Notes under the pieces: generated by a model
The model's database searches: none
What the model was told of the DNA's origin: nothing
What the model saw: only the letters and a program-made list of their open reading frames with translations
DNA from: Sphingobacteriia bacterium
GTDB lineage: Bacteria; Bacteroidota; Bacteroidia; Chitinophagales; Chitinophagaceae
Direction: 5' to 3'
Assembly: GCA_947456855.1 (NCBI GenBank)
Contig: CANGTR010000001.1
Location: 13,318-77,317, forward strand
Length of the DNA: 64,000 nucleotides
Part shown: in pieces, positions 9,925 through 63,693 of the stretch
How the letters are laid out: each line of letters begins with the position of its first letter
How positions within the stretch are numbered: the first letter of the stretch is position 1
Translations under genes and position numbers: made by a program

Positions 9925-9938
9925 GATGAGAGAGATAA
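9925..9938 (+). repeat. Short heptamer tract (GATGAGA GAGATAA) right after stop codon
   Basis: Only two units; same family as the longer tracts. Confidence 0.35.
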
Positions 9939-9959
9939 GCTAAAAAATGTAAGAATAAA

Positions 9960-10757
9960 ATGATGGTAGAAATTTTTGGATATTGCGTTGCACTGTTAAT
10001 TGGTCTTTCTTTGGGATTGATTGGCGGAGGCGGCTCTATTTTAACCATCCCTGTGTTGGTTTACTTATTTAAAATGGATCCATTAGACGCTACAGGATAT
10101 TCATTGTTTATTGTTGGTGTAAGCAGTTTATTGGGAGCATATATGAAATTTCGAAAAAACGAAATTGATATAAAAGCAGCCGGCTATTTCGGTATTACTT
10201 CTATAATAACAGTGGTGTTGGTTAGAAAATATTTATTACCTGCAATCCCAATCCATTTGTTTAACATAGGAAATTTTGAATTTACGAAATCAATCGCAAC
10301 CCTTTTATTGTTTGCGTTTGTAATGATAATTGCTTCTATCAATATGATCAACAGAAAGGCAAATCAATCAATTGAACCCAAAAAACTCAATGCGAATGCG
10401 GCACTTATAAGAGGGATTGAAGTTGGGGTTCTGACTGGATTTATAGGCGCTGGAGGGGGATTTGTAATTATTCCAGTTTTATTATTCTCCTTTCAATTAC
10501 CTATGAAAAAAGCCATTGGCACTTCTTTATTAATCATTGCCGCTAATTCTTTATTTGGGTTTGCCGGCGATCTATTCATCAATCATTTTGAATGGCCCTT
10601 GCTTTTGTTGATTACTTTTATTAGTTGCATTGGTATATTAATCGGAAATAAATTGAGCAATACCATTTCAGGAAATAAATTGAAACGCGGATTCGGTTTT
10701 TTCGTACTTTCAGTAGGTTGTTTTATTATCATTCATGAAATCATCAAATTATTTTAA
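9960..10757 (+). CDS. Sulfite exporter TauE/SafE family
   Basis: LGLIGGGGSILTIP and GFIGAGGGFVIIP repeats, KKAIGTSL. Confidence 0.92.
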   Translation: MMVEIFGYCVALLIGLSLGLIGGGGSILTIPVLVYLFKMDPLDATGYSLFIVGVSSLLGAYMKFRKNEIDIKAAGYFGITSIITVVLVRKYLLPAIPIHLFNIGNFEFTKSIATLLLFAFVMIIASINMINRKANQSIEPKKLNANAALIRGIEVGVLTGFIGAGGGFVIIPVLLFSFQLPMKKAIGTSLLIIAANSLFGFAGDLFINHFEWPLLLLITFISCIGILIGNKLSNTISGNKLKRGFGFFVLSVGCFIIIHEIIKLF

Positions 10758-11700
10758 TTGGGGCAAAAAATTTCTTCTTTTTGCTTTTGCTGTATTGATC
10801 ATTATCAACTTTTTCAAACAGATTTCTACTAGCAATAAGCAGCACCAATTAGCCTTTAAATATACCGACACCAGTTGCTGGGTTGGTGCTGGTATTTATG
10901 AAATTCCTGATAACATTCATGGAGACTCTATCCGATATGGAAGAGATTTAATTGCACATACAGCTAAATATTTTGGGCCAAAGGGAAGCGTCAAACCCAT
11001 AACCAATGGAATGAATTGTCAAAATTGTCATTTGGATGCTGGCACTAAACCATGGGGCAATAATTATGGAGCTGTGGCAGCAAATTATCCTTTGTTTAGA
11101 GATCGATCCGGTTCAATTGAAAGCATTGAAAAAAGAATCAATGATTGTTTGGAGAGAAGTTTAAATGGCAGCCCCATTGATGAAGCTGGTTTAGAAATGA
11201 AAGCCATGGTAGCTTATATTAAATGGTTGGGCAAGGATGTTCCTATAAATACTAAACCAAAAGGAACTGGGATATAACAACTGGTTTATTTAAATAGAGC
11301 AGCAGATCCAGAAAAAGGCAATACTGTTTTTATCAATCATTGCGAAAGATGTCATGGCAAAAATGGCGAAGGAAAAATGGATTCAACCAATGTTGAATAT
11401 ACCTATCCTCCAGTTTGGGGAAAATACAGCTATAATGAATCTGCGGGTTTATTCAGGCTATCAAGCTTTGCAGGATTTGTAAAAAACAATATGCCCAATA
11501 CAGTAAACTATCTACATCCTGAACTGAGTGATGAAGAAGCCTGGGATGTAGCAGCATTTGTAAATTCACAGCCAAGACCGAATAAAAAATTCAAAGCCGA
11601 TTGGCCCAATGTCAGCAAAAAACCAAAGGATTACCCATTTGGCCCCTATACCGATTCACTAACCGAAAGTCAACATAAATATGGCCCTTGGAAAAAATAG
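10735..11700 (+). pseudogene. tsdA: TsdA-like diheme c-type cytochrome (thiosulfate dehydrogenase family) interrupted by one in-frame TAA at 11275-11277
   Basis: Heme 1 CQNCH, RINDCLERS Cys ligand; frame continues past TAA as QLVYLNRAADPEKGNTVFINHCERCHGKNGEG into the 11377-11700 ORF with NNMP Met ligand. Confidence 0.8.
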
Positions 11701-11731
11701 GTAACTAAAGAAAGTATCCTTCCGTCAAATT

Positions 11732-12916
11732 TTACACCGATTCAATTACCATTGCACTTGCACCACCACCTCCATTGCAAATACCAGCCCCACCAATTTT
11801 ACCATTGTGTTGCTTCAATACATGAATTAATGTTACGATAATTCTTGCACCACTACAGCCCAGCGGATGACCAAGAGATACTGCACCACCATGAACATTT
11901 ACGATAGCTGGATTGAGATTCATTTTTTGAGTATTGGCAATTCCAACTACAGAAAAAGCTTCATTTAATTCTACAAAATCCAAGTCAGCCATTTTCAATC
12001 CTGCTTTGGCTATGGCTTTTGGCAATGCCAACGATGGTGAAGTAGTAAACCATTCAGGTGCTTGTTCGGCATCTGCATAACTACGAATAATTGCCAAAGG
12101 CTTAATGCCCAATTCATCGGCTTTTTCTTTACTCATTAAAACAACTGCTGCTGCACCATCATTCATTGTACTTGCATTTGCAGCAGTAACTGTTCCATCT
12201 TTAATGAATGCGCCTTTTAGTTCAGGAATTTTATCGAACTTAACATTAAAAGCTTCTTCGTCTTTTGAAAATAAAATGGGATCACCCTTTCTTTGCGCTA
12301 TAGCAATGGGAATAATTTCATTTGTAAAAAATCCACTATTGATTGCATGTTGACTTTTGGTATAACTATCCACTGCAAATGCATCTTGATCGGCCCTCGA
12401 AATATTGCAATCCTTAGCGCAAAGTTCGGCAGCATTGCCCATTGCATAATTATGGTATACATCTGTTAAACCATCTTTAACTAACCCATCAATCAAAGAA
12501 ACATTGCCATACTTATTTCCCCATCGCATGTTGGGAGAATAGAATGGAACATTGCTCATGCTTTCCATACCACCTGCAACCACTATATCAGCATCCCCTA
12601 ATAAAATAGACTGTGCTCCTTGAGCAATGGCCTTCATTCCACTGGCACAAACTTTATTTACTGTGGTAGCAATAACCGAATCAGGCAATCCAGCAAATTT
12701 AGCCGCTTGACGTGCAGGAGCCTGCCCAGTATTGGCTTGAATCACACAGCCCATCAATACTTCGTTTACCAATGCAGGATCAATACCAGCTTTCTCAACT
12801 GCCCCTTTAATAGCAATGGCACCTAATTGAGGAGCCGAAAAATCTTTTAAACTACCACCAAAACTTCCGATAGGCGTACGAACTGCCGAAACGATATAAA
12901 CTGTTTTACTAGACAT
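11732..12916 (-). CDS. Acetyl-CoA C-acyltransferase (thiolase)
   Basis: VNKVCASG, NEAF, GHPLGCSG and GICNGGG catalytic motifs. Confidence 0.96.
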   Translation of the reverse strand: MSSKTVYIVSAVRTPIGSFGGSLKDFSAPQLGAIAIKGAVEKAGIDPALVNEVLMGCVIQANTGQAPARQAAKFAGLPDSVIATTVNKVCASGMKAIAQGAQSILLGDADIVVAGGMESMSNVPFYSPNMRWGNKYGNVSLIDGLVKDGLTDVYHNYAMGNAAELCAKDCNISRADQDAFAVDSYTKSQHAINSGFFTNEIIPIAIAQRKGDPILFSKDEEAFNVKFDKIPELKGAFIKDGTVTAANASTMNDGAAAVVLMSKEKADELGIKPLAIIRSYADAEQAPEWFTTSPSLALPKAIAKAGLKMADLDFVELNEAFSVVGIANTQKMNLNPAIVNVHGGAVSLGHPLGCSGARIIVTLIHVLKQHNGKIGGAGICNGGGGASAMVIESV

Positions 12917-12971
12917 GATTTAAAATTATGTTGCGAAATTAAGGAAAAAACTAACAAGTGTTAGGGTTGAG

Positions 12972-13006
12972 GAACTAAGAATTAAGAAATATGAATTATG
13001 AAATTG
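12972..13006 (+). repeat. Heptamer tract (GAACTAA GAATTAA GAAATAT GAATTAT GAAATTG)
   Basis: Five in-register 7-mers on the 5' side of thiolase. Confidence 0.6.
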
Positions 13007-13210
13007 GTATCCATTTTTTGAGTATCCTTCTGCGTATTTAATATTTATCAATTTGCTCCAATTGGTGCAAATTTTGAAATCCTATGGCTTCCATAATTAT
13101 GTTGTTTTCTTTCTTCCTCTTTTTATTTTTAAGTAGAAGATTAAAATTGATTTTAAATGCCCATAATTATGCATAGTGGTTATGAGATAGAACAATCATC
13201 TCATATTACA

Positions 13211-13636
13211 TTAATCAATCAATTTCATTCCATAATGGCCCAAAAGCGTAAATAAAGCACAACGCGTAACCACCCCTATACAGCACCACATCAATAATTT
13301 AGGTATCGCTACATTTAATCCAGTACCAACCCCAATACTTACAGGAGCGCCAACAGTCATGGTTCCAAAAAAACCCAACCCAATAACACCATATTTATTC
13401 CATATTTTATAAATCAGTTTGTTATTATCGGCTTCCTTTTTGGGTTTTCTAAATTTATTTAAATAAAGCTGAATTTTTTCTCCTAAAAATGCAGCAAAGA
13501 ATACACCTATTAGTCCGCCGATAACTGTTGTTAAAAAAATGAGCCAAGAGGGTATGTTCATAGCAAAGCCTGCCGGTATGGCTGCATAAATTTCAAAAGT
13601 TGCTAATCCGCCTACAGTAAGTATTTTAAAAAACAT
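13211..13636 (-). CDS. Small multi-drug export family membrane protein (COG2426-like)
   Basis: EIYAAIPAG motif, 4 TM helices, KYGVIGLG; ATG 13636 preferred over 13669. Confidence 0.7.
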   Translation of the reverse strand: MFFKILTVGGLATFEIYAAIPAGFAMNIPSWLIFLTTVIGGLIGVFFAAFLGEKIQLYLNKFRKPKKEADNNKLIYKIWNKYGVIGLGFFGTMTVGAPVSIGVGTGLNVAIPKLLMWCCIGVVTRCALFTLLGHYGMKLID

Positions 13637-13763
13637 ATCGTAATTAATAATTAAGAATGAAGTAAACATAAGAAATCCAATTAACTAAAAATGATAAGGG
13701 CAGAATATTTAACAATTGATATACATAGGCAACAATTTCATTGAATAATTGTTAACTAAATGA

Positions 13764-14480
13764 ATGAATAAGACCTTTTTATCTGCAAATTGGGAACATT
13801 TAATTATGGCCAACTATGCAGTAAACCCATCACTACTTGAACCATATCTTCCGAATGGGGTTGAATTGGATTATTTTAACAATCAAACATATGTGAGCCT
13901 TGTTGGATTCTTATTTAAAAATACTCGCTTATTTAATATACCAATCCCTATGTTGGGAACATTCGAAGAAATCAATCTTCGCTTCTATGTTAAACGAACA
14001 GAAGGCAAATCTGTTAAAAGAGGAGTTGTTTTTATTAATGAAACTGTACCTTATAAAATTGTTGCATTCATTGCCAATAAATTATACAAAGAACATTATA
14101 CTGCCATCCCAACAAAAAATACCATTTCAATTGACGGCTGCAATAAAAAAGTGAACTATGAATGGAAAATAAATAAATCCTGGAATCATTTATCGGTAGA
14201 AGCTGCTATTGAAAGAAAAGAAATGTTAACGGGAAGTATGGAAGAATTTATTTTCGAACATTATTATGGTTACACAAAAATAAGTGAGCTGGCTACGCAA
14301 GAATATAAAGTGAATCATCCAAGATGGCTGGTAAATGAAATACAAGATTATTCAATAAACTGCGATTTTAGATCGATGTATGGAGATAAATTTGATTACC
14401 TAAAAAATGAAAAACCACATTCAGTTATAATAGCAGAAGGATCATCGGTAAATGTTGACTGGAATAGAACAAAATTTTAA
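13764..14480 (+). CDS. YqjF/DUF2071 family protein
   Basis: FLSANWEHLIMANY, FEEINLRFYV, FIFEHYYGY, YKVNHPRW. Confidence 0.88.
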   Translation: MNKTFLSANWEHLIMANYAVNPSLLEPYLPNGVELDYFNNQTYVSLVGFLFKNTRLFNIPIPMLGTFEEINLRFYVKRTEGKSVKRGVVFINETVPYKIVAFIANKLYKEHYTAIPTKNTISIDGCNKKVNYEWKINKSWNHLSVEAAIERKEMLTGSMEEFIFEHYYGYTKISELATQEYKVNHPRWLVNEIQDYSINCDFRSMYGDKFDYLKNEKPHSVIIAEGSSVNVDWNRTKF

Positions 14481-14490
14481 ATCACTCATC

Positions 14491-14760
14491 ATGGAACAAA
14501 AAGATATTGATAGAATAATCGAAATGGCATGGGAAGATAGAACCCCATTTGAGGCTATCCTTTTTCAATTTGGTTTTTCGGAAGCAGCTGTAATTGAATT
14601 AATGAGAAAGCATTTAAAGCGAAGTAGTTTTAATTTATGGAGAAAGAGAGTAAACAGCGGGATAAGTCAAAAACATTTAATGAAAAGAAACCCTGAAATA
14701 AGTAGATTTAAGTGTAGCCTCCAAAAATCCATTTCGATGAATAAAATAAGCAAGCGATAA
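14491..14760 (+). CDS. TIGR03643 (DUF2805) family protein
   Basis: IDRIIEMAWEDRTPFEAI, FNLWRKRV; ATG 14491. Confidence 0.9.
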   Translation: MEQKDIDRIIEMAWEDRTPFEAILFQFGFSEAAVIELMRKHLKRSSFNLWRKRVNSGISQKHLMKRNPEISRFKCSLQKSISMNKISKR

Positions 14761-15858: not shown

Positions 15859-15860
15859 AA

Positions 15861-16469: not shown

Positions 16470-16471
16470 AT

Positions 16472-21323: not shown

Positions 21324-21357
21324 ATTAATATTCTTTTCTCAACCAATAACTTATTAC

Positions 21358-21723
21358 TTATAACTTAAACGTATCCAGTTTAGCATCTTCCAATCCATTC
21401 AATTCAAACACAATAATATCTGTTGTAGCTTCTACAAGATGCCAAGCCCAAGGATCTATTTCTACCATTGCAGGAGCCACTATATGCGCTACACCTTGCT
21501 TATCCGACCTCACATCTTTCCAATTCAACAAAGCATTTCCACTCATTATGATGATGCGTTCTGGATTTTTTTTGGAAGATAAGCCCTTGTGATAATGATC
21601 CCCACTTTTAGAACCTGCTTTTCTATATGCTACAATGAATTGACCAGTTCTATTGGTATTAAAATAATGGGTAGCCCCACGTTCGTCTTCGCCAATTTTA
21701 TCCAAGGGTATTACTCTAACCAT
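21358..21723 (-). CDS. Small cupin-fold protein
   Basis: DERG, GDHYH..E and PWAWH cupin metal motifs. Confidence 0.65.
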   Translation of the reverse strand: MVRVIPLDKIGEDERGATHYFNTNRTGQFIVAYRKAGSKSGDHYHKGLSSKKNPERIIIMSGNALLNWKDVRSDKQGVAHIVAPAMVEIDPWAWHLVEATTDIIVFELNGLEDAKLDTFKL

Positions 21724-25131: not shown

Positions 25132-26301
25132 ATGAATGTATATTTTGGAATAGATCAATTATTAACAAGCCACCCTTCATGGAAGCAATATCCTATTGGA
25201 ATGGTTACCAATGAAGCAGCTAAAACATACAATGGGATCGCTTCCAGAAAAGCATTACAAGATGCAGGATTTAAATTGGTGAAATTATTTTCTCCTGAAC
25301 ATGGTTTGTCTGTCAAAGGAGCTGATGGAGCAGCTATGCATGATGGTGTTGATGAATTGACAGATTTACCTATAATCAGTTTGTATGGAAATAAATTAGC
25401 TCCAACAAAAGAAGATTTGGCCGAATTAGAAATTATTTTGTTTGATGTACCCGATGCTGGTGTTCGATTTTATACTTATCTCTGGACATTGACCTATTTA
25501 ATGGAAACATGTGCAACTTCAAAGAAAAAAATAATTGTACTAGATCGTCCCAATCCTATTTCAGGAATTTTAACATTAGCAGAAGGCCCTTTTTTAGAAC
25601 CATCCTGTAGTTCTTTTATTGGAAGATGGCCAATTCCTATTAGACATAGTTGCAGCCTAGGTGAATTAGCGCGCTTTTTTAATGAAACACAACACATCAA
25701 AACTTCTTTGGAAATAATTGCTTGTACCAATTGGAATAGAAACAATTTTCAACCAGATTGGACTATCCCATTTGTGGGCACATCGCCAGCTATTCAAAGT
25801 TTTGAGAGTATGTTACTGTATCCAGGGCTTTGCTTTTTAGAAGCTACGAATTTGCATGAAGGCAGAGGAACCGAAAAAGCTTTTCAAATAGTTGGAGCAC
25901 CTTGGCTAAAAAATGATGCAGTTTGTGCTCAGATAAATAACATATTGGAAGATGAAATCCATGCAACACCCATTGCATATATGTCAAAAGAGAACAAATA
26001 CATAGGTGAAAAATGCAATGGGATTCATTTTAAAGTAAAAGACCAGGCAATATTTAGGCCTATTTTTTTTGGTTTGATGTTGATTAAACTCATCAAAGAG
26101 TTACACCCTGTTGATTTTGCATGGGCAACTTATCCTACCAATGTAAACCCCAATGGAACCAACCATCTAGATAAATTATTGGGCATACCTAATAGTGAAT
26201 CATTGTTTGATTTGCCTTTTGCAAGTTTTTTACAATGGGCTACAAAATTAACATCAAGTAAAGATTGGGAGAAAATGATGGAGCCTTATTTATTGTATTA
26301 A
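25132..26301 (+). CDS. namZ: Exo-beta-N-acetylmuramidase NamZ / DUF1343 family
   Basis: FSPEHG, ISLYG, DAGVRFYTY, VLDRPNP, PIRHSCSLGELA, EGRGT. Confidence 0.88.
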   Translation: MNVYFGIDQLLTSHPSWKQYPIGMVTNEAAKTYNGIASRKALQDAGFKLVKLFSPEHGLSVKGADGAAMHDGVDELTDLPIISLYGNKLAPTKEDLAELEIILFDVPDAGVRFYTYLWTLTYLMETCATSKKKIIVLDRPNPISGILTLAEGPFLEPSCSSFIGRWPIPIRHSCSLGELARFFNETQHIKTSLEIIACTNWNRNNFQPDWTIPFVGTSPAIQSFESMLLYPGLCFLEATNLHEGRGTEKAFQIVGAPWLKNDAVCAQINNILEDEIHATPIAYMSKENKYIGEKCNGIHFKVKDQAIFRPIFFGLMLIKLIKELHPVDFAWATYPTNVNPNGTNHLDKLLGIPNSESLFDLPFASFLQWATKLTSSKDWEKMMEPYLLY

Positions 26302-27026
26302 ACTTCTTGCTTCATCAACCCCCTCACCACCACACTTGCAGTCATACAACCAAAAATAGCAGGCATATAAGAAATGGTTCCGATGATGGATTTTTTAGGA
26401 AAAGCCTTTTCAGTTTCAATGATACGAGATTGATCTACTTTTTCTGCACTGAATACCACTGTAAGTCCTTTGTAAATGCCTAATGAATGTAATTTCTTGC
26501 GAACATATGCTGCTAAATTACATTGATAGGTTTTAGATATATCCGTAATGATTACTTGTGAAGGGTCTACTTTTCCTCCAGCACCAAGAGAACTAACGAT
26601 GGGAATTTTTCTATCTAAACAAGCTTTTATAAAAAACACTTTGGGAGATAAGGTATCAATACAATCTACTGCGTAATCATAGTTTGCTTCATCCAATAAT
26701 TGCTGGGTAAGTTCTTCTTTTATATAAATTGATTTCACAATCAATTCAATATTTGGGTTGATGTCTTTCAAGCGTTCGGCCATTACTTCCGACTTTAGCT
26801 TGCCAGCTGTAGAATGCAATGCAGGAATCTGACGGTTGGTATTACTCAAATCAACTGTATCAGCATCTACAATGGTCATCTTTCCTACACCTGCCCTTGC
26901 GATCATTTCAGCACAAATACCTCCTACTCCGCCTAAGCCAACTACCAATACATGTTTTTGCATTAAAGTTTCTATGGGTTCATCTCCAAGCAATAATTGA
27001 GTGCGACTCATCCAGTATGGAATCAT
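26298..27026 (-). CDS. tcdA: tRNA threonylcarbamoyladenosine dehydratase (ThiF/E1-like)
   Basis: VGLGGVG, DADTVDLSNTNRQ, SSLGAGGK, ISYMPAIFG. Confidence 0.9.
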   Translation of the reverse strand: MIPYWMSRTQLLLGDEPIETLMQKHVLVVGLGGVGGICAEMIARAGVGKMTIVDADTVDLSNTNRQIPALHSTAGKLKSEVMAERLKDINPNIELIVKSIYIKEELTQQLLDEANYDYAVDCIDTLSPKVFFIKACLDRKIPIVSSLGAGGKVDPSQVIITDISKTYQCNLAAYVRKKLHSLGIYKGLTVVFSAEKVDQSRIIETEKAFPKKSIIGTISYMPAIFGCMTASVVVRGLMKQEV

Positions 27027-27033
27027 TAAATAA

Positions 27034-27110
27034 GAATTATGAATTAAGAGATATGAATTATGAGATACATTTTAAAAGATAAGAATTATGAGTTAATAAT
27101 TATGAGACAC
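27034..27110 (+). repeat. Heptamer tract, 11 in-register units (GAATTAT/GAGATAT family, one degenerate)
   Basis: Begins 7 nt upstream of the tcdA start codon. Confidence 0.8.
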
Positions 27111-27162: not shown

Positions 27163-28263
27163 ATGTTTTTGAATAATAAAATATTTCTCTGTTTATTAGG
27201 TATTATTTTAACCTGCACCGCAATAGCGCAAATAAAGCCAACAATTGAAATACTCGAGCAAGGCCGGAAAACCAGCCTAAGAGGCATGAGTGTGGTAAAC
27301 AACAACGTGATTTGGGTAAGTGGAAGTGGTGGTTCTGTGGGCAAATCTTTGGATGGAGGAAAAACCTGGAATTGGAATACAGTTGCTGGTTATGAGAAAA
27401 GCGATTTCAGGGATATTGAAGCATTTGATGATAAAACTGCATTCATAATGGGCATCACTCAACCAGCAGTAATCCTGAAAACAAAAGATGGCGGCATTAA
27501 CTGGATGAAAGTTTTTGAGGATACAGCTAAAGCGGCATTTTTTGATGCGATAGCATTCGATGTATCTCACAATGATACTGTAGGCGTGCTTATAGGCGAT
27601 CCAATAAAAAAGCTGCAATACATTGCTATGACTTTTTTTGAAAATGAAGAAATGGAATGGAAAGTACCAGACGCCGTTTATGACACTGGTTTTGATAAGT
27701 TTGAAGAGCAGTTTGCCGTTAAAAAAGGGGAAGCATTTTTTGCTTCAAGTGGCACAAATATAAGCTTTATAAATTTCGAGGAAATGCTTCCGCTGCTTGG
27801 ATTTGTAGTTTCAGGTGGATTGAAAACATCCTTAATTCATTATCCAATTGGTTATAAATATGATATCCCCATGATAAGTGGAAAAACATCAACAGGAGCC
27901 AACTCCATTGCAATCTTAAGAGACAAAAATAAGGGGGTAATTGTTGGAGGTGATTTTGCCAACGATACTTTAAGAGAGGGGAATATGGTACTGTTTAACT
28001 ATTCAAAAAAAGATTATTCGCCAACATTTACCAAACCGACAATCCCTCCTTTCGGCTATCGCTCATGCGTTATATACATCGATGAAAATAATTTAATCAC
28101 TTGTGGAACTTCGGGAGTAGATATTTCAAAAGACGGTGGAATGAATTGGGAACTCATTTCCAATGAAAGCTTTCATGTTGTTCAAAAAGCAAAAAATGGC
28201 AATGCAGTTTATCTTGCAGGCAAAGGAGGAAGAATTGCAAAATTCAACCCCACAACCCAATAA
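27163..28263 (+). CDS. Secreted BNR/YCF48-like beta-propeller protein
   Basis: Signal peptide; SLDGGKTW, TKDGGINW, SKDGGMNW Asp-box repeats. Confidence 0.85.
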   Translation: MFLNNKIFLCLLGIILTCTAIAQIKPTIEILEQGRKTSLRGMSVVNNNVIWVSGSGGSVGKSLDGGKTWNWNTVAGYEKSDFRDIEAFDDKTAFIMGITQPAVILKTKDGGINWMKVFEDTAKAAFFDAIAFDVSHNDTVGVLIGDPIKKLQYIAMTFFENEEMEWKVPDAVYDTGFDKFEEQFAVKKGEAFFASSGTNISFINFEEMLPLLGFVVSGGLKTSLIHYPIGYKYDIPMISGKTSTGANSIAILRDKNKGVIVGGDFANDTLREGNMVLFNYSKKDYSPTFTKPTIPPFGYRSCVIYIDENNLITCGTSGVDISKDGGMNWELISNESFHVVQKAKNGNAVYLAGKGGRIAKFNPTTQ

Positions 28264-28310
28264 CTTAATTAATCAATCACTTATTTAACCAATCACTTTT
28301 AACTAGTAAC

Positions 28311-28805
28311 TTATAACTGACTTTGCATTTTTTCCACCATCTTATACGTTGCAGGGCAGTATGAAATATTTTGTTGATGTACATGAATGTATTCCACCAT
28401 TTTCTTTTTCTTCAAATGCGGGAAACCAGCACAATCATCCGGACGAACTTCATAGATACTACACATATTGTTTTTTAAATTCAAAAACTGACATGGTTGT
28501 GATGTATTCATCCAATCCTTATCTTTTTTATCGAAGAACAACCATTTTTCTTTGAACTCATTAGGCGTGATTTCAAAATGAGCAGCAATGCGTTTAATAT
28601 CTTTATTTGTAAAAGTTGGGCTCATTGATTTGCAGCAATTGGCACAAGACAAACAATCTACTTCTTTCCAAACTTCAGCATCAATTTTTTCGGCTAGTTT
28701 ATCCAATCCTTTTGGAGGATTCTTTTCAATTTTTCCTAAAAAACGTTTCATTGATTTTTGATGATGACGTACTTTCTGTTTGAACGATCTTAAATTTACT
28801 TGCAT
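28311..28805 (-). CDS. YkgJ family cysteine cluster protein (copy 2)
   Basis: CLSCANCC ... CQFL....CSIYEVRPDDC. Confidence 0.9.
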   Translation of the reverse strand: MQVNLRSFKQKVRHHQKSMKRFLGKIEKNPPKGLDKLAEKIDAEVWKEVDCLSCANCCKSMSPTFTNKDIKRIAAHFEITPNEFKEKWLFFDKKDKDWMNTSQPCQFLNLKNNMCSIYEVRPDDCAGFPHLKKKKMVEYIHVHQQNISYCPATYKMVEKMQSQL

Positions 28806-28912
28806 GAGGTCGATTCGATTTTTGACTAAAAGCGAATGTACGTAATATTGGTCAATGGTTATAAGTCATGTTCAAATCCAACAACTTAATTCGTAACTTC
28901 ATTGCTTAACTA

Positions 28913-28947
28913 ATATCTCTTATCTCTTAATTCATATCTCTTAACTC
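28913..28947 (+). repeat. Heptamer tract, 5 units (ATATCTC TTATCTC TTAATTC ATATCTC TTAACTC)
   Basis: Ends 3 nt before the xerD ATG. Confidence 0.8.
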
Positions 28948-28950: not shown

Positions 28951-29850
28951 ATGTGGGAAGCATATAAAAAAGGATACAAAGCCTACCTCCGTTTAGAAAG
29001 ATCTATGAGCGACAACTCTGTAGAAGCCTATCTGCGCGATGTTTCCAAGCTTACCGATTATTTACAAATCACTGAGCAACTGAAGAACCCCGCTGATATC
29101 GAATTAAAAGACTTACAAGCATTCGTAAAATGGGTGGGAGAATTGGGCATGACAGCAACATCACAGAGTAGAATGATTTCAGGCATACGTAGTTTTTATA
29201 AATATTGTTTGATAGAGCAAATCTGCACTATTGACCCTTCCGTATTACTCGATGCTCCCAAAACAAAAAGAGCATTACCAGATACATTAAGCTTTGAAGA
29301 GATCGAAAGCATGATCGCTCAAATTGATTTGAGCAGCGCAGAAGGTGGTAGAAACAAAGCAATCATTGAAACCATGTATAGCTGCGGATTAAGGGTAAGC
29401 GAAGTAGTGAATTTAACTATTTCGGGGCTTTACCTTGATGTAGGGTTTATAAGAGTAATCGGAAAAGGTGATAAGGAAAGATTGATCCCAATAGGATCAG
29501 ATGCCATCAAATACATTAGCTTATATAAAGAAACCATTCGCAGCCATCAAAACATTCAACCTGGCTTTGAAGACATTTTATTCCTCAATAGAAGAGGCAA
29601 AAATTTAACCAGGGTAATGATCTTTTATATCATTAAAGATTTAGCATACAAGGCAGGCATCTCTAAAACCATATCTCCACATACCCTAAGACATTCTTTT
29701 GCCACTCATTTGGTGGAAGGCGGTGCTGATCTAAGGGCTGTTCAGGAGATGTTAGGGCATGAAAGCATAACTACTACAGAGATATACACCCATTTAGATC
29801 GCGACTTTTTAAGGGATACACTCCAAAGATTCCATCCCGGGTTCAAATAA
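28951..29850 (+). CDS. xerD: Site-specific tyrosine recombinase XerD
   Basis: CGLRVSE, GKGDKER, SPHTLRHSFATHL, MLGHESITTTEIY catalytic residues. Confidence 0.93.
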   Translation: MWEAYKKGYKAYLRLERSMSDNSVEAYLRDVSKLTDYLQITEQLKNPADIELKDLQAFVKWVGELGMTATSQSRMISGIRSFYKYCLIEQICTIDPSVLLDAPKTKRALPDTLSFEEIESMIAQIDLSSAEGGRNKAIIETMYSCGLRVSEVVNLTISGLYLDVGFIRVIGKGDKERLIPIGSDAIKYISLYKETIRSHQNIQPGFEDILFLNRRGKNLTRVMIFYIIKDLAYKAGISKTISPHTLRHSFATHLVEGGADLRAVQEMLGHESITTTEIYTHLDRDFLRDTLQRFHPGFK

Positions 29851-30790: not shown

Positions 30791-30827
30791 AATAAAAAAA
30801 GCGATGAAATTCATCGCTTTTTTTATT
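30791..30827. terminator. Bidirectional intrinsic terminator
   Basis: Perfect inverted repeat AATAAAAAAAGCGATGAA / TTCATCGCTTTTTTTATT between convergent genes. Confidence 0.9.
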
Positions 30828-30830: not shown

Positions 30831-30921
30831 GTATCTCTTATCTTTTATCTCTTCTCTCTTATCTCTTATCTCTTATCTCTTCTCTCTTATCTCTTCTCTC
30901 TTATCTCTTCTCTTTTATCTC
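30831..30921 (+). repeat. Heptamer tract, 13 units (TTATCTC/TTCTCTC/TTATCTT)
   Basis: Abuts the stop codon of the minus-strand PLP acyltransferase. Confidence 0.92.
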
Positions 30922-32181
30922 TTAATTAGCATCTGCCATATCCGGTATCGCTTCCACCTTATAAGCACCAGCATCTAATTTGGCTTTGGTTTCGCTAAAT
31001 GCCACTAATGTTTCTTGAATATCTGCATCAGTATGCGCAGCTGATGGAATCAATCGGAATATGATATGTCCTTTAGGAATTACCGGATAAATAACAATTG
31101 ATGCGAATACATGATAATTCTCTCTTAAGTCCATCACCATTGCAGTAGCTTCTTCTACTCCACCAGTCATATAAACTGGAGTAACCGGGCTATCGGTTTT
31201 GCCAATATCAAATCCACGCTCTTTTAAGCCAGATTGTAATTTCAATGCATTGCTCCATAATTTTTCTTTTAACTCAGGCATGGTTCGCAACATATCCAAA
31301 CGCTTAAGATTTCCCAATACAATTGGCATTGGTAAACTCTTAGCAAAAATTTGGCTTCTGATATTGTAACGAATAAAATCAATAATGGCTTTATCACCAG
31401 CTAAAAAAGCACCAATTGAAGCCATGCTTTTAGCAAAAGTGGAAAAATACAAATCGATGGCATCTTGACAGCCTTGTGCTTCACCAGCACCTGCACCAGT
31501 TTTGCCCAATGTTCCAAATCCATGCGCATCGTCTACCAATAGCCTGAATTGGTATTTATCTTTTAGTGCAGCAATTTCCTTTAGTTTGCCCTGATCTCCT
31601 GCCATGCCAAATACCCCTTCGGTAATTACTAAAATGCCACCTGTTTTTTGCTTCTCAATCAACTGGGTTGCTCTAGCTAATTGTTTTTCGCAATCTTCAA
31701 CATCATTGTGTTTGAATACATAACGATGTCCTGGATGTAAACGCAATCCATCGATAATACATGCATGACTTTCTGCATCGTATACAATTACATCATGTCT
31801 GCCACAAATCGCATCGATGGTACTCATGATACCTTGGTATCCAAAATTGAGCAAAATAGCATCTTGCTTGCTTTCAAAAGCAGCCAATTCTTTTTCTAAT
31901 TGTTCGTGATAATTAGAGTTACCACTCATCATTCTAGCACCCATTGGGTAAGCCATACCAAATTCTTTGGCAGCTTCTGCATCTACTTTTCTAATTTCAG
32001 GATGATTGGCCAAACCTAAATAGTTATTTAAGCTCCAAACAATCATGTCTTTTCCACGAAACTTCATTCTACTACTAATCTCACCTTCCAACTTAGGAAA
32101 AGAAAAATAACCATGTGCTCTTTCGCGGTGCTGACCCAAGGGTCCAGCATTTTTTAACATTTTTTCAAATATATCTGCCAT
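30922..32181 (-). CDS. Alpha-oxoamine synthase family; likely cysteate acyl-ACP transferase (SulA/CapB, sulfonolipid synthesis)
   Basis: NNYLGL, PLP Lys251 (TFAKS), SQIFAKSLP with Lys281 where BioF/SPT have Ser/Thr. Confidence 0.75.
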   Translation of the reverse strand: MADIFEKMLKNAGPLGQHRERAHGYFSFPKLEGEISSRMKFRGKDMIVWSLNNYLGLANHPEIRKVDAEAAKEFGMAYPMGARMMSGNSNYHEQLEKELAAFESKQDAILLNFGYQGIMSTIDAICGRHDVIVYDAESHACIIDGLRLHPGHRYVFKHNDVEDCEKQLARATQLIEKQKTGGILVITEGVFGMAGDQGKLKEIAALKDKYQFRLLVDDAHGFGTLGKTGAGAGEAQGCQDAIDLYFSTFAKSMASIGAFLAGDKAIIDFIRYNIRSQIFAKSLPMPIVLGNLKRLDMLRTMPELKEKLWSNALKLQSGLKERGFDIGKTDSPVTPVYMTGGVEEATAMVMDLRENYHVFASIVIYPVIPKGHIIFRLIPSAAHTDADIQETLVAFSETKAKLDAGAYKVEAIPDMADAN

Positions 32182-57457: not shown

Positions 57458-57498
57458 ATTAGAACTTTGTTTTTTACTTATTTGGGTGAATAATGGAA

Positions 57499-58656: not shown

Positions 58657-58818
58657 TTTACTTTTTTAGGTAGTCTTCCCTTTTTATCGGGATGGTTAAT
58701 TAATAATCCTGAAAAACTCAGGAACCCAGATTTCTCCTTCCAACATATGCAGGATATCCAAAACCAAGGATTTTATAGCAAAAAGTCATGAGCCTTTTCA
58801 GGCCATGACTTTAACTAA

Positions 58819-59199
58819 TTATTTCTTAGCAACTTTTTTCTTACCAGCAACTGTTTTACGCTTACCTTTTCTGGTACGGCTATTGGTTTTAGTTCTTTGT
58901 CCACGTACAGGCAATCCTTTACGGTGACGAAGTCCTCTGTAACAAGCAATATCCAATAAACGCTTAATGCTCATAGATACTTCACTACGTAAAGCACCTT
59001 CCACCTTAAATTCATTGTTAATTACATTACGAATAGCAGTTTGTTCATCATCATTCCACTGATTCACTTTCTTATCATAGCTGATACCAGCTTTATCTAA
59101 GATATACTGAGCTGTAGAACGACCAATACCAAAAATGTAGGTCAACCCAATTTCGCCTCTTTTGTTTTTTGGTAAATCTATACCGGCAATACGAGCCAT
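58819..59199 (-). CDS. rpsM: 30S ribosomal protein S13
   Basis: [30 protein letters not shown]. Confidence 0.98.
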
Positions 59200-59233
59200 A
59201 TTTATTGTTTTATACTTTTAGATGATGATTCAA

Positions 59234-59350
59234 TTATCCTTGACGTTGCTTAAAGCGAGGATTCTTTTTGTTGATTACAAATAATTTTCCTTTACGCTTC
59301 ACGATCTTACAATCGGCACTACGTTTTTTAATGGAAGCTCTTACTTTCAT
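59234..59350 (-). CDS. rpmJ: 50S ribosomal protein L36, zinc-free type (38 aa, not in ORF track)
   Basis: Manual translation [38 protein letters not shown]; canonical position between infA and rpsM. Confidence 0.97.
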
Positions 59351-59397
59351 TGTTTGGTTATTTAACTGTTATATTCTATTACTAATTACCGAATCTC

Positions 59398-59502
59398 TTA
59401 TCTCTTCTCTCTTCTCTTTTCTCTTTTATCTTTTATCTCTTATCTTTTATCTCTTATCTTTTATCTCTTATCTTTTATCTCTTATCTTTTATCTCTTCTC
59501 TC
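59398..59502 (+). repeat. Heptamer tract, 15 units (TTATCTC/TTATCTT alternating)
   Basis: Between infA and rpmJ, 9 nt from the infA stop. Confidence 0.93.
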
Positions 59503-59511
59503 TTCCTACTT

Positions 59512-59730
59512 CTATTTATACCTAAATATGATTCTTCCCCTACTCAAATCATATGGGCTCATTTCAACTCCCACTTTATCACCTGGCAATATTCGGATAT
59601 AGTGCATCCTCATTTTACCTGAAATAGTAGCCAATATTTCATGACCATTTTCTAACTTCACTCTGAACATAGCATTGCTTAATGCTTCCAGAATTACTCC
59701 ATCTTGTTTAATCAGTGGTTGTTTCGACAT
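59512..59730 (-). CDS. infA: Translation initiation factor IF-1
   Basis: [40 protein letters not shown]. Confidence 0.98.
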
Positions 59731-59746
59731 ACTATTTTTGGGGCTG

Positions 59747-59754
59747 CAAAGATA
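59747..59754 (-). promoter_or_regulatory. -7 box TATCTTTG (followed by CAGCCC) heading the infA operon
   Basis: Exact TAnnTTTG 16 nt before the infA start. Confidence 0.75.
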
Positions 59755-59964
59755 TTAGAATACAACCGAAATATGAAAAATTAGTGGAAAAAACTCCTTA
59801 AAATGTGGAAAAAAAGTTGGATTTAGTCTAAAAAAGCGTCGTTTGATCGCAAAGATTGCAACAAATCAATCAAACATATTGATTATTTAGCATATGATTG
59901 ATTGAAAAATTGATCTTTTAAGCAAATAATTAGAGACCGATATAGATGACGCTTAACCAAATAC

Positions 59965-60369
59965 TCACATCGGATCTTTGGTAAGATACACTTTAGTCAT
60001 ATCATGGTATTGATTTTGCAATTGGTGCACAAAATGAACTTTGGGATGATGGCGTTTATCTTCGCGATACCACATTTCAATAGATGAAAAATCTCCTGCT
60101 TTGGGAGAAACTATTCTAAACGGGCCTTTTGAATATTTTACAGAACCATCATCATTGGGCTGTTTGGTGAATTGTAGATTCAACAAGGCTTCCTCATTTA
60201 GTGCAATAGCATGTAAATGATCAGTAGAAAACCAAAATTCCTGCACTTCTGTTTGCAAACAAACCTGCTGTTCATCTCCATTTAATCGGGTTACTTCCCC
60301 CTCCCATTTTTTTCCTTCAAACTCGCCAAATAGGTAGTCTCCAATTTGGATGTCGCTATATTTTACCAT
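59965..60369 (-). CDS. Hypothetical protein (SH3-like N-terminus, VHQLQN C-terminal motif)
   Basis: 134-aa ORF filling the space between hmgA and infA; no catalytic motif recognised. Confidence 0.7.
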   Translation of the reverse strand: MVKYSDIQIGDYLFGEFEGKKWEGEVTRLNGDEQQVCLQTEVQEFWFSTDHLHAIALNEEALLNLQFTKQPNDDGSVKYSKGPFRIVSPKAGDFSSIEMWYREDKRHHPKVHFVHQLQNQYHDMTKVYLTKDPM

Positions 60370-60471
60370 AAAATAAGTGTTGAGCGTTAATAAATAGTTT
60401 GAAGGGATAAGTTAATCATTTTTATTGAAAACTCAATAACCCCAACTAGAATTATGAATAACCATCAACTC

Positions 60472-60527
60472 ATATCTCTTATCTTATATCTCTTATCTCT
60501 TATCTCTTATCTCTTATCTCTTAATTC
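60472..60527 (+). repeat. Heptamer tract, 8 units (ATATCTC/TTATCTC/TTAATTC)
   Basis: 5 nt from the hmgA stop. Confidence 0.9.
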
Positions 60528-60532
60528 ATCTT

Positions 60533-61690
60533 TCACTCAGCCCAACTCATCGTATATCCTTGATTCTCGATAGCCAGCGCCTCTTCGGTTAATTGCAAAG
60601 GATGAAAAGTATCTACCATCACTGCCAATTCCAAAGTTTCTTTTTTACCAATGCTTTTTTCTACAGCTCCTGGATGAGGTCCATGCGGTATGCCAGCCGG
60701 GTGCAAGGTTATCATCCCTCGGGTAACATTTTTTCTACTCATAAAATCTCCAGCAACATAATACAATACTTCATCACTATCTATATTGCTATGGTTATAA
60801 GGAGCAGGAATTGCATTGGGATGGTAATCATACAATCGAGGACAAAAACTACATACCACAAAATTATGCGCATCGAAGGTTTGATGTACCGGAGGCGGTT
60901 GATGCACCCTACCTGTTATTGGTTCAAAATCATGAATACTAAATACATAGGGATAACAATATCCATCCCATCCTACTACATCAAATGGATGAGTTCCATA
61001 ATGTAATCCATATAAAACTCCTTTCTTTTTTGTTTGAATTAAAAAATCACCCTTCTCATCAAAAGTTTGCAGGTTTTGTGGCCCACGAATATCTCTTTCG
61101 CAAAATGGGGCATGCTCTAACAATTGGCCATTTTTACTAGTATACCTTTTAGGATATCGAATCGGGCTAAAACTTTCTACTATAAACAATCTATTTAAAG
61201 GAGTATCAAAATGTATTTGGTAAATAGTACCTCTAGGAATAATTACATAATCGCCATAGCCAAAAACCAGTTCGCCATATTGAGTTAATAATTTGCCGCT
61301 TCCTTCGTGAATAAAAATAAGCTCATCGGCATCAGCATTTTTGTAGAAATAATTGGTAGTACTTTGTTGTGGAGCCGCTAAAACAATATGACAATCATTA
61401 TTTACTAAAACAGGCTTTCGACTTTTTAAATAATCTGCTTCTGGCGCAATTTGAAAACCCTCGAAACTTCTATGTTTGAGCATTTTCTCTTCTGCCACTT
61501 TTGGCATCACAGAAATAGGTTCATCGGTATGTATTATTTGTGTAGGTGGATGGTTGTGGTACAATAAAGAATAATCATTGCTAAACCCTTCTGTTGAAAA
61601 AAGTTGTTCCGAATACAAAGAACCATCGGGCTTTCTAAACTGCGTATGTCGTTTGTGCGGAATATTACCTAAAGAATAATAATGGGGCAT
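60533..61690 (-). CDS. hmgA: Homogentisate 1,2-dioxygenase
   Basis: NADADELIFIHEG, HPFDVVGWDG, YNHSNIDSDE, TLHPAGIPHGPHPG. Confidence 0.93.
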   Translation of the reverse strand: MPHYYSLGNIPHKRHTQFRKPDGSLYSEQLFSTEGFSNDYSLLYHNHPPTQIIHTDEPISVMPKVAEEKMLKHRSFEGFQIAPEADYLKSRKPVLVNNDCHIVLAAPQQSTTNYFYKNADADELIFIHEGSGKLLTQYGELVFGYGDYVIIPRGTIYQIHFDTPLNRLFIVESFSPIRYPKRYTSKNGQLLEHAPFCERDIRGPQNLQTFDEKGDFLIQTKKKGVLYGLHYGTHPFDVVGWDGYCYPYVFSIHDFEPITGRVHQPPPVHQTFDAHNFVVCSFCPRLYDYHPNAIPAPYNHSNIDSDEVLYYVAGDFMSRKNVTRGMITLHPAGIPHGPHPGAVEKSIGKKETLELAVMVDTFHPLQLTEEALAIENQGYTMSWAE

Positions 61691-61697
61691 GTGGGAG

Positions 61698-61739
61698 AAT
61701 TAAGAATTATGAGATATGAATTATGAGATATGAATTATT
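61698..61739 (+). repeat. Heptamer tract, 6 units (GAATTAT/GAGATAT)
   Basis: 7 nt upstream of the hmgA start codon. Confidence 0.85.
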
Positions 61740-61852
61740 GGGTTATTGGTTTTAATAGATCGTAAAGTAAAAATAGCCTGTTTATAATTTAAAATTAATG
61801 AAGTTGGAGTCATTTAAGAAATAATGTATCTTTTGCAATTAAAACCGTTTAT

Positions 61853-62986
61853 ATGGCGAAATCAGTAAACCGCAGGGATTGGTTAAAATACAGTTCTTTG
61901 GCCACTCTTGGATTGGGATTTAGATTACCAGTAATGGGCAATGAAGAAGGTATTCTTAAAAGCTATGGGGCAGAAAAAGGATTGATTAATTTGAGTTCTA
62001 ATGAAAATCCATATGGAATTTCTCCAAAAGCAAAAGAAGCCGTAATGCAATTAATTGGGGAAGCGCATAGATATCAATACAATATTGCATCGCTTCAATC
62101 TTTTAAAAAACAATTGGCAACAAAATATGGGGTTGAAGAAAACCAAGTTTTATTAACTCCTGGTTCTGGAGAAGCTTTAGGATTATTGCCAAGGGTTTAT
62201 AATAAGGGAAATTTAGTAACAGCTTATCCCACTTTTGGCATTTTGCCATCAGCAGCAAAAAAGATTGGCACCAAAGTGATAGAAGTGCCACTTAACGCTT
62301 CAAAGGCACACGACTTAAATGCAATGCTTAAAGCGGTAAGCACCGAAACTTCATTGGTATATATATGCAATCCCGCTAATCCTTCAAGCACAATTGTATC
62401 TCCTGCTGCATTAAAAAATTTCTGCATAGAAGCATCAAAGAATGCTGTAGTGGCTGTAGATGAAGCATATATAGATTATTTAGACACCCCCGATAACGAA
62501 TCAATGATAGGATTGATCGAAAAAAATCCAAACGTTATGGTCATTGGCACTTTCTCAAAAATTCACGCAATGGCTGGCTTGAGAATTGGATTTATAATTG
62601 CAAGTGCTGCGCATATTAAAACCATGAGTGATAATTATTTTGTTAGAACACAGTTTGCCATGAGTGTATTGTCGATGACCGCTGCCCAAGCAAGTTTAAA
62701 CGATTCAGAGCACCATAAAATCAGCAAACAAAAAAATGAAATAGCCAGAAAATACGGGTATGACGAACTGAGAAAGCTGAACATAGAATGTATCCCATCT
62801 TATACCAACTTTCTATTTTTCCCTTTGGGAAATTATCCAGGCAATTTTTCAGAAAACATGTTGAAGCAAAATATTTTCTTAAGATCAGATACCTACAACG
62901 GAGAAAAATGGGCACGAGCTAGTGTAGGCACTTTAGATGAAATGAAACAATTTATTGCCGTTATGAAAAGAGAATGGAAATCGTAA
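61853..62986 (+). CDS. HisC-like class I/II PLP aminotransferase with twin-arginine signal
   Basis: NRRDWLK Tat-like motif; LSSNENPYG, YICNPANP, VDEAY, TFSKIHAMAGLRIG. Confidence 0.85.
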   Translation: MAKSVNRRDWLKYSSLATLGLGFRLPVMGNEEGILKSYGAEKGLINLSSNENPYGISPKAKEAVMQLIGEAHRYQYNIASLQSFKKQLATKYGVEENQVLLTPGSGEALGLLPRVYNKGNLVTAYPTFGILPSAAKKIGTKVIEVPLNASKAHDLNAMLKAVSTETSLVYICNPANPSSTIVSPAALKNFCIEASKNAVVAVDEAYIDYLDTPDNESMIGLIEKNPNVMVIGTFSKIHAMAGLRIGFIIASAAHIKTMSDNYFVRTQFAMSVLSMTAAQASLNDSEHHKISKQKNEIARKYGYDELRKLNIECIPSYTNFLFFPLGNYPGNFSENMLKQNIFLRSDTYNGEKWARASVGTLDEMKQFIAVMKREWKS

Positions 62987-63005
62987 AATAGCCCCGCGAA
63001 TTTAT

Positions 63006-63046
63006 AATGCCCCAAAAAAGTTAGACACTTGATTGGGGCATTTTTA
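63006..63046 (+). terminator. Repeated hairpin AATGCCCCAAAAAAGTTAGACACTTGATTGGGGCATT plus T-run (copy 2)
   Basis: 10-bp outer stem, AAGT/ACTT inner stem; 19 nt after the aminotransferase stop. Confidence 0.75.
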
Positions 63047-63076
63047 TTTTGAGTTTCTTACATTTAAATAGGCAAC

Positions 63077-63547
63077 TTACATTCCAGGAAAATAAGGCCT
63101 CCCAACTATTTCTCTGAACTGCCAAGGCACTCCTGCTAATATTAGTAATAAAGCAACCAGGAAGTACATGAATGCTTTTTTGTATTTAATCTCATCAGTT
63201 ACTTGCTTTTTTGACATACCATAACCAAGGGTAATAAATACAATTGCCAAAATCATGGTTGTAGGATGCTCCAGCCAATAAAAACGGTAGAATTTATCTT
63301 TCATCATCGACATTCCTTCTGGCAAGGTAGTTACAAAAAACCCATATCGTCCAAACATTACTTGGTACAACCCTAACAACAAAGTTGTATGAGCAGCTAT
63401 CATGGTAAACAACCAGGTCTTTTTATCTCCAGCTTTAAACGCTTTCTTTCCTGTCCAACCAGCATAAGCTTGTAAAACAGATAGCACCAGCAATATCAAA
63501 ATAATCCAGCGCAATAAATTATGTAAGTGCATTAATCCTGTTTGCAT
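63077..63547 (-). CDS. Four-TM membrane protein with several His residues (possible heme b binder)
   Basis: HLHN, AAHT and LEHP in or near TM helices; ATG 63547 preferred since track start 63565 lies in a TAGATTTG -7 box (63563-63570). Confidence 0.7.
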   Translation of the reverse strand: MQTGLMHLHNLLRWIILILLVLSVLQAYAGWTGKKAFKAGDKKTWLFTMIAAHTTLLLGLYQVMFGRYGFFVTTLPEGMSMMKDKFYRFYWLEHPTTMILAIVFITLGYGMSKKQVTDEIKYKKAFMYFLVALLLILAGVPWQFREIVGRPYFPGM

Positions 63548-63619
63548 AATCAAAATTTTAAACAAATCTAACTTAATAATTGAATAAGTCTACAATCAAT
63601 GTATTTCATCTTCAATCTC

Positions 63620-63693
63620 TTAATTCATATCTCTTCTCTCATATCTCTTATCTCATATCTCTTATCTCTTATCTCTTATCTCTTATCTCTTAA
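63620..63693 (+). repeat. Heptamer tract, 10-11 units (TTATCTC/ATATCTC)
   Basis: Runs into the stop codon of the PD40 gene. Confidence 0.92.

Follow-up and report, generated by a model that had tools for sequence, protein, structure and literature searches.

Among the long simple repeats of bacterial genomes, tandem repeats with a unit of seven nucleotides are the most common, and no accepted function has been assigned to them since the short tandemly repeated repetitive (STRR) heptamers of heterocystous cyanobacteria, which in the work of Mazel et al. (1990) were reportedly dispersed, intergenic, often located in operons and of unknown function. Here we have analysed a window of 64,000 nucleotides (contig CANGTR010000001.1 of assembly GCA_947456855.1, positions 13,318 to 77,317; G+C 35%) from a Sediminibacterium-like member of the Chitinophagaceae, represented by a metagenome-assembled genome (MAG) of 2.48 Mb in 132 contigs. 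A preliminary description of this window had noticed nine intergenic tracts of degenerate heptamers oriented according to the neighbouring gene. We are highly confident that these tracts represent a single dispersed family of tandem heptamer arrays, fast-changing and strand-asymmetric, which sit on gene boundaries, are of the same kind as the repeats of Xanthomonas and Nostoc and are the same repeats as the arms of cassettes built around PF05635/TIGR02436 genes, and that they obey a single rule: the G-free strand, read 5' to 3', runs into the adjacent gene and ends a few bases from its stop or start codon. The STRR sequences belong to another taxon and have other units.

The closest described elements are those of Rehm et al. 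2015 (PLoS One, PMC4692102), which consist of the unit GGGAATC in Xanthomonas campestris and Xanthomonas citri and of GGGGA(C/T)T in Nostoc PCC 7120. In that work the intergenic repeats lie almost exclusively nearer the 5' neighbouring open reading frame (ORF), whatever its orientation: upstream of ORFs they are 0-50 bp away and on the non-coding strand, while downstream they are 0-50 bp from the stop and on the coding strand, overlaps with the stop included. Their locations are conserved between species, most of them are transcribed, inverted pairs exist, and their function is unknown. The polarity rule seen here is the rule published in that study, and our arrays resemble those repeats in being tandem 7-nt units, mostly intergenic, with the same polarity, conserved locations and inverted pairs. 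However, they differ in several ways: (i) the arrays in this Bacteroidota genome are AT-rich (TTATCTC, TTATCTT, ATAATTC, CAATAAC) and lack G runs, the units having at most an isolated G and no run of at least three G of the G-quadruplex type, so that formation of a G-quadruplex or an i-motif cannot cause the polarity; (ii) they reach up to 25 units, compared with the four-unit preference of the published repeats; and (iii) 5' and 3' sites use different unit classes, and the link to PF05635 cassettes seen here is absent from the published account (PMC4692102). The G-run feature defines the Xanthomonas and Nostoc sequences and not the polarity class.

A partial case of the same rule is found in the TAACTGA direct repeats of Beggiatoaceae, Cyanobacteria and five Bacteroidetes (MacGregor 2015, Front Microbiol, PMC4679880). 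These arrays lie directly upstream of starts in the 'forward' orientation and are present in ribosomal-protein operons, and in Flexibacter litoralis one array stands in reverse orientation directly past a stop; 'other heptamer direct repeats' are mentioned there for Gramella, Aequorivita and Elizabethkingia, together with breaks of the assembly at repeat sites. No TAACTGA unit was found among the arrays described here, whose units are TTATCTC, ATATCTC, TTATCTT, ATAATTC and others, the nearest being (TAACTCA)n at C13:22331-22473 (C-numbers denote contigs of the window's own genome, G000). Moreover, some 80% of our arrays are on the stop side, and no general polarity rule is stated for TAACTGA (PMC4679880). 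Two further classes of element invite comparison. The ORF-bearing intervening sequences of 23S rRNA, from which PF05635 takes its name ('23S rRNA-intervening sequence protein'), share with the cassettes of this genome and its relatives an ORF in the loop of a predicted long stem formed by inverted flanks; in contrast, the cassettes lie between protein-coding genes and their arms are tandem heptamer arrays, and the window tracts are solo arrays with neither a partner arm nor an ORF. The repetitive extragenic palindromic sequences and bacterial interspersed mosaic elements (REP/BIME) of Enterobacteria are dispersed, transcribed intergenic repeats that cluster past stops and vary in copy number between strains. 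Unlike them, our arrays have no conserved palindromic unit, and a solo array cannot form a hairpin.

The rule is best seen on the window itself. We call the G-free strand Y and its complement R, the 'outer' end of an array the 3' end of Y and the 'inner' end the opposite one. All nine tracts exist where they had been placed, as judged by Tandem Repeats Finder (TRF) and by reading, and two more arrays absent from the earlier list were found. In the following list, which also holds one hairpin, the strand is that of the G-poor units, and base counts were taken on the strand of the neighbouring gene.

9925-9945, G-poor units on the minus strand: t1, about 2.5 units GAGATGA/GAGAGAT directly 3' of the stop of gene 9286-9924 (plus); C1/G6; weak.
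12972-13006, minus strand: t2, ATAATTC/TTAATTC units on the 5' side of a thiolase gene, 11732-12916 (minus), 56 nt upstream of its ATG; G1/C6.
21346-21367, plus strand: additional array, (ATAACTT)x3 across the stop of gene 21358-21723 (minus); obeys the rule.
27030-27107, minus strand: t3, on the 5' side of a ThiF-family gene, 26298-27026 (minus), about 4-7 nt from its ATG (27026); G1/C13.
28262-28318, plus strand: additional array, G-poor and heptamer-like, occupying the whole of the 47 nt that separate the convergent stops of 27163-28263 (plus) and 28311-28805 (minus); obeys the rule.
28905-28947, plus strand: t4, on the 5' side of a XerD-like recombinase gene, 28951-29850 (plus), 3 nt before its ATG; G0/C11.
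30797-30825, no strand: canonical bidirectional hairpin with T/A runs between convergent genes, just past the inner end of t5; conserved in the sister species.
30831-30921, plus strand: t5, 13 units TTATCTC/TTCTCTC running into the stop (TTAATTA) of an aminotransferase gene, 30922-32181 (minus); C1/G28.
59391-59504, plus strand: t6, 16 units in a ribosomal-protein operon, 7-9 nt past the stop of infA (59512-59730, minus) and 40 nt before the ATG of rpmJ (59235-59351, minus); C1/G29.
60465-60527, plus strand: t7, on the 3' side of a homogentisate-dioxygenase-like (HgmA-like) gene, 60533-61690 (minus), 5 nt past its stop; C0/G17.
61697-61738, minus strand: t8, ATAATTC/ATATCTC on the 5' side of the same HgmA-like gene, 6-7 nt upstream of its ATG, followed by CAATAAC-type units; G0/C8.
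63601-63693, plus strand: t9, on the 3' side of a PD40/Tricorn-like gene, 63694-> (minus), running into its stop (TTAATTA); C1/G25.

In the window, it is always by the 3' end of its Y strand that a tract touches a gene, which means either a same-strand ATG or an opposite-strand stop. The two-part rule proposed earlier, of C-free tracts past stops and G-free tracts before starts, is thereby restated without reference to the direction of transcription. Both of its parts hold up: the five 3' tracts are almost C-free and lie 0-9 nt from the stop, with t1 weak and, taken alone, a doubtful array, and the four 5' tracts are almost G-free, three of them 3-7 nt from the ATG and t2 at 56 nt. The genes beside the tracts are ordinary housekeeping genes.

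The same geometry extends to the whole genome, in which there are about 120-130 tandem heptamer arrays of one family, picked up by TRF at periods of 7, 14, 21 and 28. A chain finder that requires at least 4 core pentamers spaced 7 nt apart returned 118 arrays and none in a Markov shuffle of the whole genome; 117 of the 118 are intergenic, with genes called by our own crude ORF caller on the draft MAG. In an ORF-agnostic boundary test, which accepts any ORF of at least 70 aa starting or ending between -24 and +16 nt from an array end, 63 arrays touched a boundary with the outer end only, 4 with the inner end only, 20 with both and 31 with neither (binomial p=1e-14). Random orientation, the outcome that would have spoken against the earlier claim that tracts follow their neighbouring gene, is therefore not what the genome holds. 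There is no clean exception among the four inner-only arrays: contig ends truncate two, a third makes up half of a double array, and the outer end of the fourth (C2:20561-20597) lies 4 nt from the 5' end of the transfer-messenger RNA (tmRNA) gene (C2:20187-20556, minus), so that the rule also holds for an RNA gene. A generic test of any TRF period-7 array with a G/C asymmetry gave 79 cases for the rule and 6 against (p=2e-17). Local base composition was rejected as the source of the polarity on the stop side, since array-free gene ends lean the opposite way to the arrays, with C in excess of G downstream of the stop in 346 of the 608 sites that show a G/C difference. Spacers with two arrays invariably show R before Y, inner end to inner end, that is, the G-containing arm comes first and the C-containing one second, as in the cassette resident on C51; gene-less pairs in one spacer, in this genome and in the relative G028, often have non-complementary units. 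One gene-less R/Y pair, 3' of the gene for a ROK kinase in conspecific contigs (L284-L289, 2497-2700), carries a small conserved central hairpin, GAGATA-CAATAAAT-TATCTC, between its arms.

The array count is a lower bound. Many contigs of this genome begin or end within heptamer arrays (C1:1-112, C2:3-156, C10:71-231, C12:1-92, C27:112-293, C45:44-155, C80:5-132 and C127:5-123, among others), which indicates that the short-read assembly was broken by the arrays and that their true number is above our count. At one contig end outside the window (C85:21-253) the heptamers build a 41-nt higher-order repeat of about 6 copies (AGGTATCTCATAATTCATATCTCTTATCTCTTATCTACATG).

Stop-side and start-side arrays differ in number and in make-up. 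Arrays abutting a stop outnumber those abutting a start by 70 to 13 (p=1e-10), and are longer, with a median of 84 nt compared with 42 nt (p=5e-4). Their main units are TTATCTC, ATATCTC, TTATCTT and CTATCTC, those of the start-side arrays being ATAATTC, ATATCTC and TTAATTC, and on the Y strand the start-side arrays contain more A (30% versus 19%, p=2e-6) and less C (21% versus 26%, p=1e-3). As oriented, the start-side arrays hold 3 start codons in 667 nt; inverted, they would hold 45. In 59 of 70 stop-side arrays, 42 nt of the sense strand are enough to meet a stop in each of the three frames, and in about half of the stop-side cases the gene's stop codon lies inside the array. Several genes draw from the array 1-4 C-terminal residues together with their stop, and most genes that adjoin an array stop at the residue where orthologues lacking an array also stop. 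We infer from operon context that the arrays are transcribed; t6 lies within the infA-rpmJ operon, where its transcription is hard to avoid. The composition would fit the untranslated-region modules that had been suggested for the tracts, with an A-rich leader free of start codons and a C-free trailer rich in stops. Solo arrays contain no hairpin and thus are not intrinsic terminators, which consist of a GC-rich hairpin plus a T run; within 90 nt past a stop-side array such a hairpin and T run occur in 3 of 65 cases, t5 being one of them, compared with 256 of 2042 control genes. A role as spacers between the stop and a canonical terminator was considered and rejected, as it fits t5 and only those 3 of 65 arrays genome-wide. 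Rho utilisation (rut) sites are C-rich, G-poor stretches of unstructured RNA, some 60-90 nt long, that cause Rho-dependent termination. The G-free strand of the stop-side arrays, at about 26% C and about 1% G over the median 84 nt, has a base composition that would fit such a site, and the genome contains a rho gene.

Between species the arrays keep to their boundaries even as the sequence of the unit changes. Arrays of the TTATCTC type are found in 2 of 25 congeners, namely this genome and its sister species G018, with which the window is syntenic. In G018 there is an array at 8 of the 9 window tract sites, in the same orientation, with a different copy number and often a different unit: (GTTATTG)x3 directly past the stop at the t1 site, another unit mix at t4, about 6 units of TTCTTTC type at t5, TTCTTTC-type units at t6 and (CAATAAC)n at both t8 and t9, with t3 conserved. 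In 400-kb samples of four other Chitinophagales genomes, boundaries touched by the outer end outnumber those touched by the inner end by 56 to 3 (G018 26:3, G027 10:0, G034 5:0, G028 15:0), with heptamers unrelated to those of the window, such as TAATTCC, ACTTCCG, CAACTGT and ACTTACG. At the HgmA-like gene of 80 Chitinophagaceae species we have identified 25 G-poor arrays within 15 nt upstream of the ATG and 11 C-poor arrays within 11 nt past the stop; all 36 follow the rule, and their units vary widely between species. On the tree of HgmA-like proteins the presence of the 5' array requires at least 13 changes, versus about 21 for shuffled labels, and the site is thus both heritable and frequently reset.

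Within the species the arrays expand and contract in place, as conspecific metagenome contigs that encode an identical HgmA-like protein and have identical flanks show. The t6 spacer measures 119, 182 and 168 nt in these contigs and 160 nt here; t7 measures 177, 142 and 177 nt (163 nt here) and t9 146, 153 and 167 nt (128 nt here), while t8 keeps a constant length with unit swaps, and strains carry anywhere from 3 to about 20 units in the R arm 3' of the ROK kinase gene. Between G000 and G018, t7 has both ends in common and differs in its interior, which points to slippage in place and not to growth at an end. The spacer between infA and rpmJ, 160 nt here, is 44 nt in array-free congeners; the 22 nt beside the rpmJ ATG are conserved and the array sits a few bases past the infA stop. 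Two observations on the flanks of the HgmA-like gene stand beside these. In the spacer 61690-61853 the upstream neighbour is a divergent aminotransferase gene in G000 and G018, and in the array-free G019 and G010 (L055, L056) a co-directional membrane protein gene ends 30-40 nt before the HgmA-like ATG; the array-bearing spacer coincides with a rearrangement junction. The array-free congener G017 (L058) has no heptamer arrays at the boundaries of its HgmA-like gene; a dispersed intergenic element of another kind, a GC-rich palindromic repeat (GTCATCCCGAGCGAAGCCGAGGGACC ... CTCGCTCAGGATGAC), fills this niche with copies on either side.

The arrays also occur as the arms of a cassette. It had been suggested earlier that heptamer arms flank the four-helix-bundle genes of family TIGR02436 in Bacteroidota, and this is borne out. 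The single TIGR02436 gene of the genome (76 bits; PF05635, 63 bits) lies at C51:3819-4181, enclosed by inverted arrays (C51:3653-4266): an R arm at 3653-3736, reaching across the upstream gene's stop, and a Y arm at 4178-4266, reaching across that of the converging gene. The arm units, GAGATAT/GAGTTAT and TTATCTC/TTATCTT, belong to the same family as the solo arrays. No partner arm or enclosed ORF was found for any window tract. The family is present in 18 of 41 genomes (this one and 40 relatives). Among the relatives' loci a period-7 array stands on at least one side in 26 of 30 and on both sides in 15 of 30, with a G-rich left arm and a C-rich right arm. In 12 of 14 heptamer pairs the two units are reverse complements of each other at 6-7 of 7 positions, even as units differ from copy to copy, and pairing between the arms is predicted, with duplex z-scores from -5 to -12. 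Almost no period-7 arrays were seen in the sampled TIGR02436-free congeners G017 and G012, and four of five sampled TIGR02436-bearing genomes are array-rich, the exception being G040, with 6 cassettes and few solo arrays in the sample. Of 40 genomes with a strong TIGR02436 match, 22 have arrays at the HgmA-like gene, versus 1 of 10 without such a match (Fisher p=0.014), a comparison confounded by phylogeny, as the ten belong mostly to one clade; the correlation is only a lead. The cassette occupies the same site in G018 (L015, orthologous to C51) and in all conspecific contigs, and no filled-versus-empty polymorphism was found in the conspecific contigs around the C51 cassette and around one gene-less pair, where only copy number varies; an apparent loss in L296 proved to be a run of N. 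Genome G041 (the source of L204), a very close relative whose HgmA-like protein is 100% identical to that of the window, has five TIGR02436 genes to the one here, which suggests rapid gain or loss of cassettes. At C41:1536-2303, an R and a Y array enclose a purE-like gene (C41:1622-2137, minus) with their inner ends turned towards it; this is the sole non-TIGR02436 gene that we have seen in such a short-range 'cargo' position. Full-text searches found no literature linking TIGR02436 or PF05635 to heptamer repeats.

What, then, sets the polarity? Tentatively, and with considerable doubt, we attribute it to selection on what a transcript tolerates, the likeliest of the causes considered. The arrays would be co-transcribed with the adjacent gene as its leader or trailer, and in each place only one orientation would be tolerated. 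A G-free, A-rich leader without ATG, GTG or TTG would suit the Shine-Dalgarno-less initiation of Bacteroidota, and its inversion would create upstream start codons; a C-free, stop-rich trailer could not load Rho, and its inversion would present a C-rich, G-free Rho-loading stretch of rut-like length. Loss of unneeded spacer DNA, a step that we assume, would then bring the array against the ORF. Several points weigh against this explanation. Selection on orientation alone leaves the close spacing of 3' arrays, which begin 0-10 nt past the stop, without an explanation. The argument from stop codons does not hold everywhere, as arrays of GGGAATC are without stop codons, and so are some trailers of G018, for example (GAAAGAA)n. 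The PF05635 gene itself tolerates a C-rich array directly past its own stop. Cyanobacteria are not known to have Rho. Since Nostoc follows the same rule (PMC4692102), the Rho part of the argument cannot be universal either. Finally, the long persistence of arrays at one boundary hints at a positive function and not at mere tolerance, and co-transcription, like any effect of orientation, is something that we infer.

The main competing account regards the solo arrays as orphan arms or footprints of a mobile PF05635/TIGR02436 hairpin cassette that lost its ORF and one arm after intergenic insertion. The C51 gene, whose arms match the solo arrays in unit family and geometry, speaks for it, as do the arrays flanking most TIGR02436 genes of the relatives with complementary units and arms predicted to pair, the near absence of arrays from the two TIGR02436-free congeners, the co-occurrence at the HgmA-like gene and the invariable order of purine arm then pyrimidine arm in adjacent pairs. 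However, there are 118 arrays to one cassette, the cassette has kept its site in G018 and in the conspecific contigs with no filled or empty site to be seen, G040 combines many cassettes with few solo arrays, and the co-occurrence statistics carry the phylogenetic confounding already mentioned. Insertion into a spacer would not make every arm coincide exactly with an ORF boundary at its outer end, and gene-less pairs are often non-complementary, with A-type units beside stops and B-type units beside starts. We therefore consider this origin unlikely and favour orientation-selective tolerance over it. The preliminary description is thus supported in part: its polarity rule stands, and its alternative of single arms left by a mobile cassette finds no direct support, given solo arrays at the same boundaries in G018, copy-number variation without presence/absence polymorphism among conspecific contigs, and the non-complementary pairs. 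A different way of joining the two components is that heptamer arrays and PF05635 four-helix-bundle genes (Avd-like, of the 23S intervening-sequence type) form one system, in which the arrays would act as directional insulators of gene boundaries and the protein as a trans-acting partner that binds, processes or helps to maintain or spread arrays of its own word. This would explain both the lack of arrays in genomes without the protein and the co-variation of arm units within a cassette; we regard it as improbable.

Insulation could also be provided by Rho itself: transcripts entering a gene from outside would read the C-containing, G-free strand and load Rho, and outbound transcripts would read the C-free strand, so that antisense and read-in transcription would be stopped and operon read-through left intact. 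One geometry would then cover stop-side arrays, start-side arrays and the tmRNA gene, and the proposal draws further strength from the rut-like base content and length of the G-free strand, from the conservation of composition and not of sequence, from the presence of rho, from the rarity of canonical terminators past stop-side arrays and from the persistence of positions over long evolutionary times. Against it stand the obedience to the rule of Nostoc, a cyanobacterium and as such not known to have Rho, the rut site that 5' arrays would place in the gene's own leader, the presence of an array on only about 3% of genes, and the free variation of copy number between strains, which is odd for a tuned signal; on balance this proposal, too, has a low probability. 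Least probable of all, in our judgement, is a polarity fixed at synthesis, in which G-containing repeats would be added to DNA 3' ends pointing away from the gene, through break repair, fold-back synthesis or templated addition. It would account for the same polarity with unrelated units in several lineages, for arrays that abut or replace the last codons as if the spacer had been resected back to the ORF, and for the constant order within pairs. Nevertheless, the differences between G000 and G018 and among strains are interior with both ends shared, which fits slippage and not terminal addition, and start and stop boundaries have different unit classes, which blind synthesis would not give. 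Its telomerase-like or reverse-transcriptase-templated version was rejected, as no RVT_1 reverse transcriptase was found in the array-rich G000, G018 and G028.

These arrays are an AT-rich, G-quadruplex-independent example of a published and still unexplained class of repeats. What is new is that the rule holds without any G-quadruplex potential and that 5' and 3' arrays use different units. Three hypotheses emerge for the class, namely orientation-selective tolerance, Rho-directional insulation and a protein partner. There are practical consequences too, because short-read assemblies break at the arrays, and because the C-terminal codons that they add or replace are relevant to annotation. 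Taken together, the polarity is retained even when the unit has been replaced entirely, an RNA gene follows it just as protein genes do, and the composition of start-side and stop-side arrays differs as would be expected if translation start and stop constrain them.

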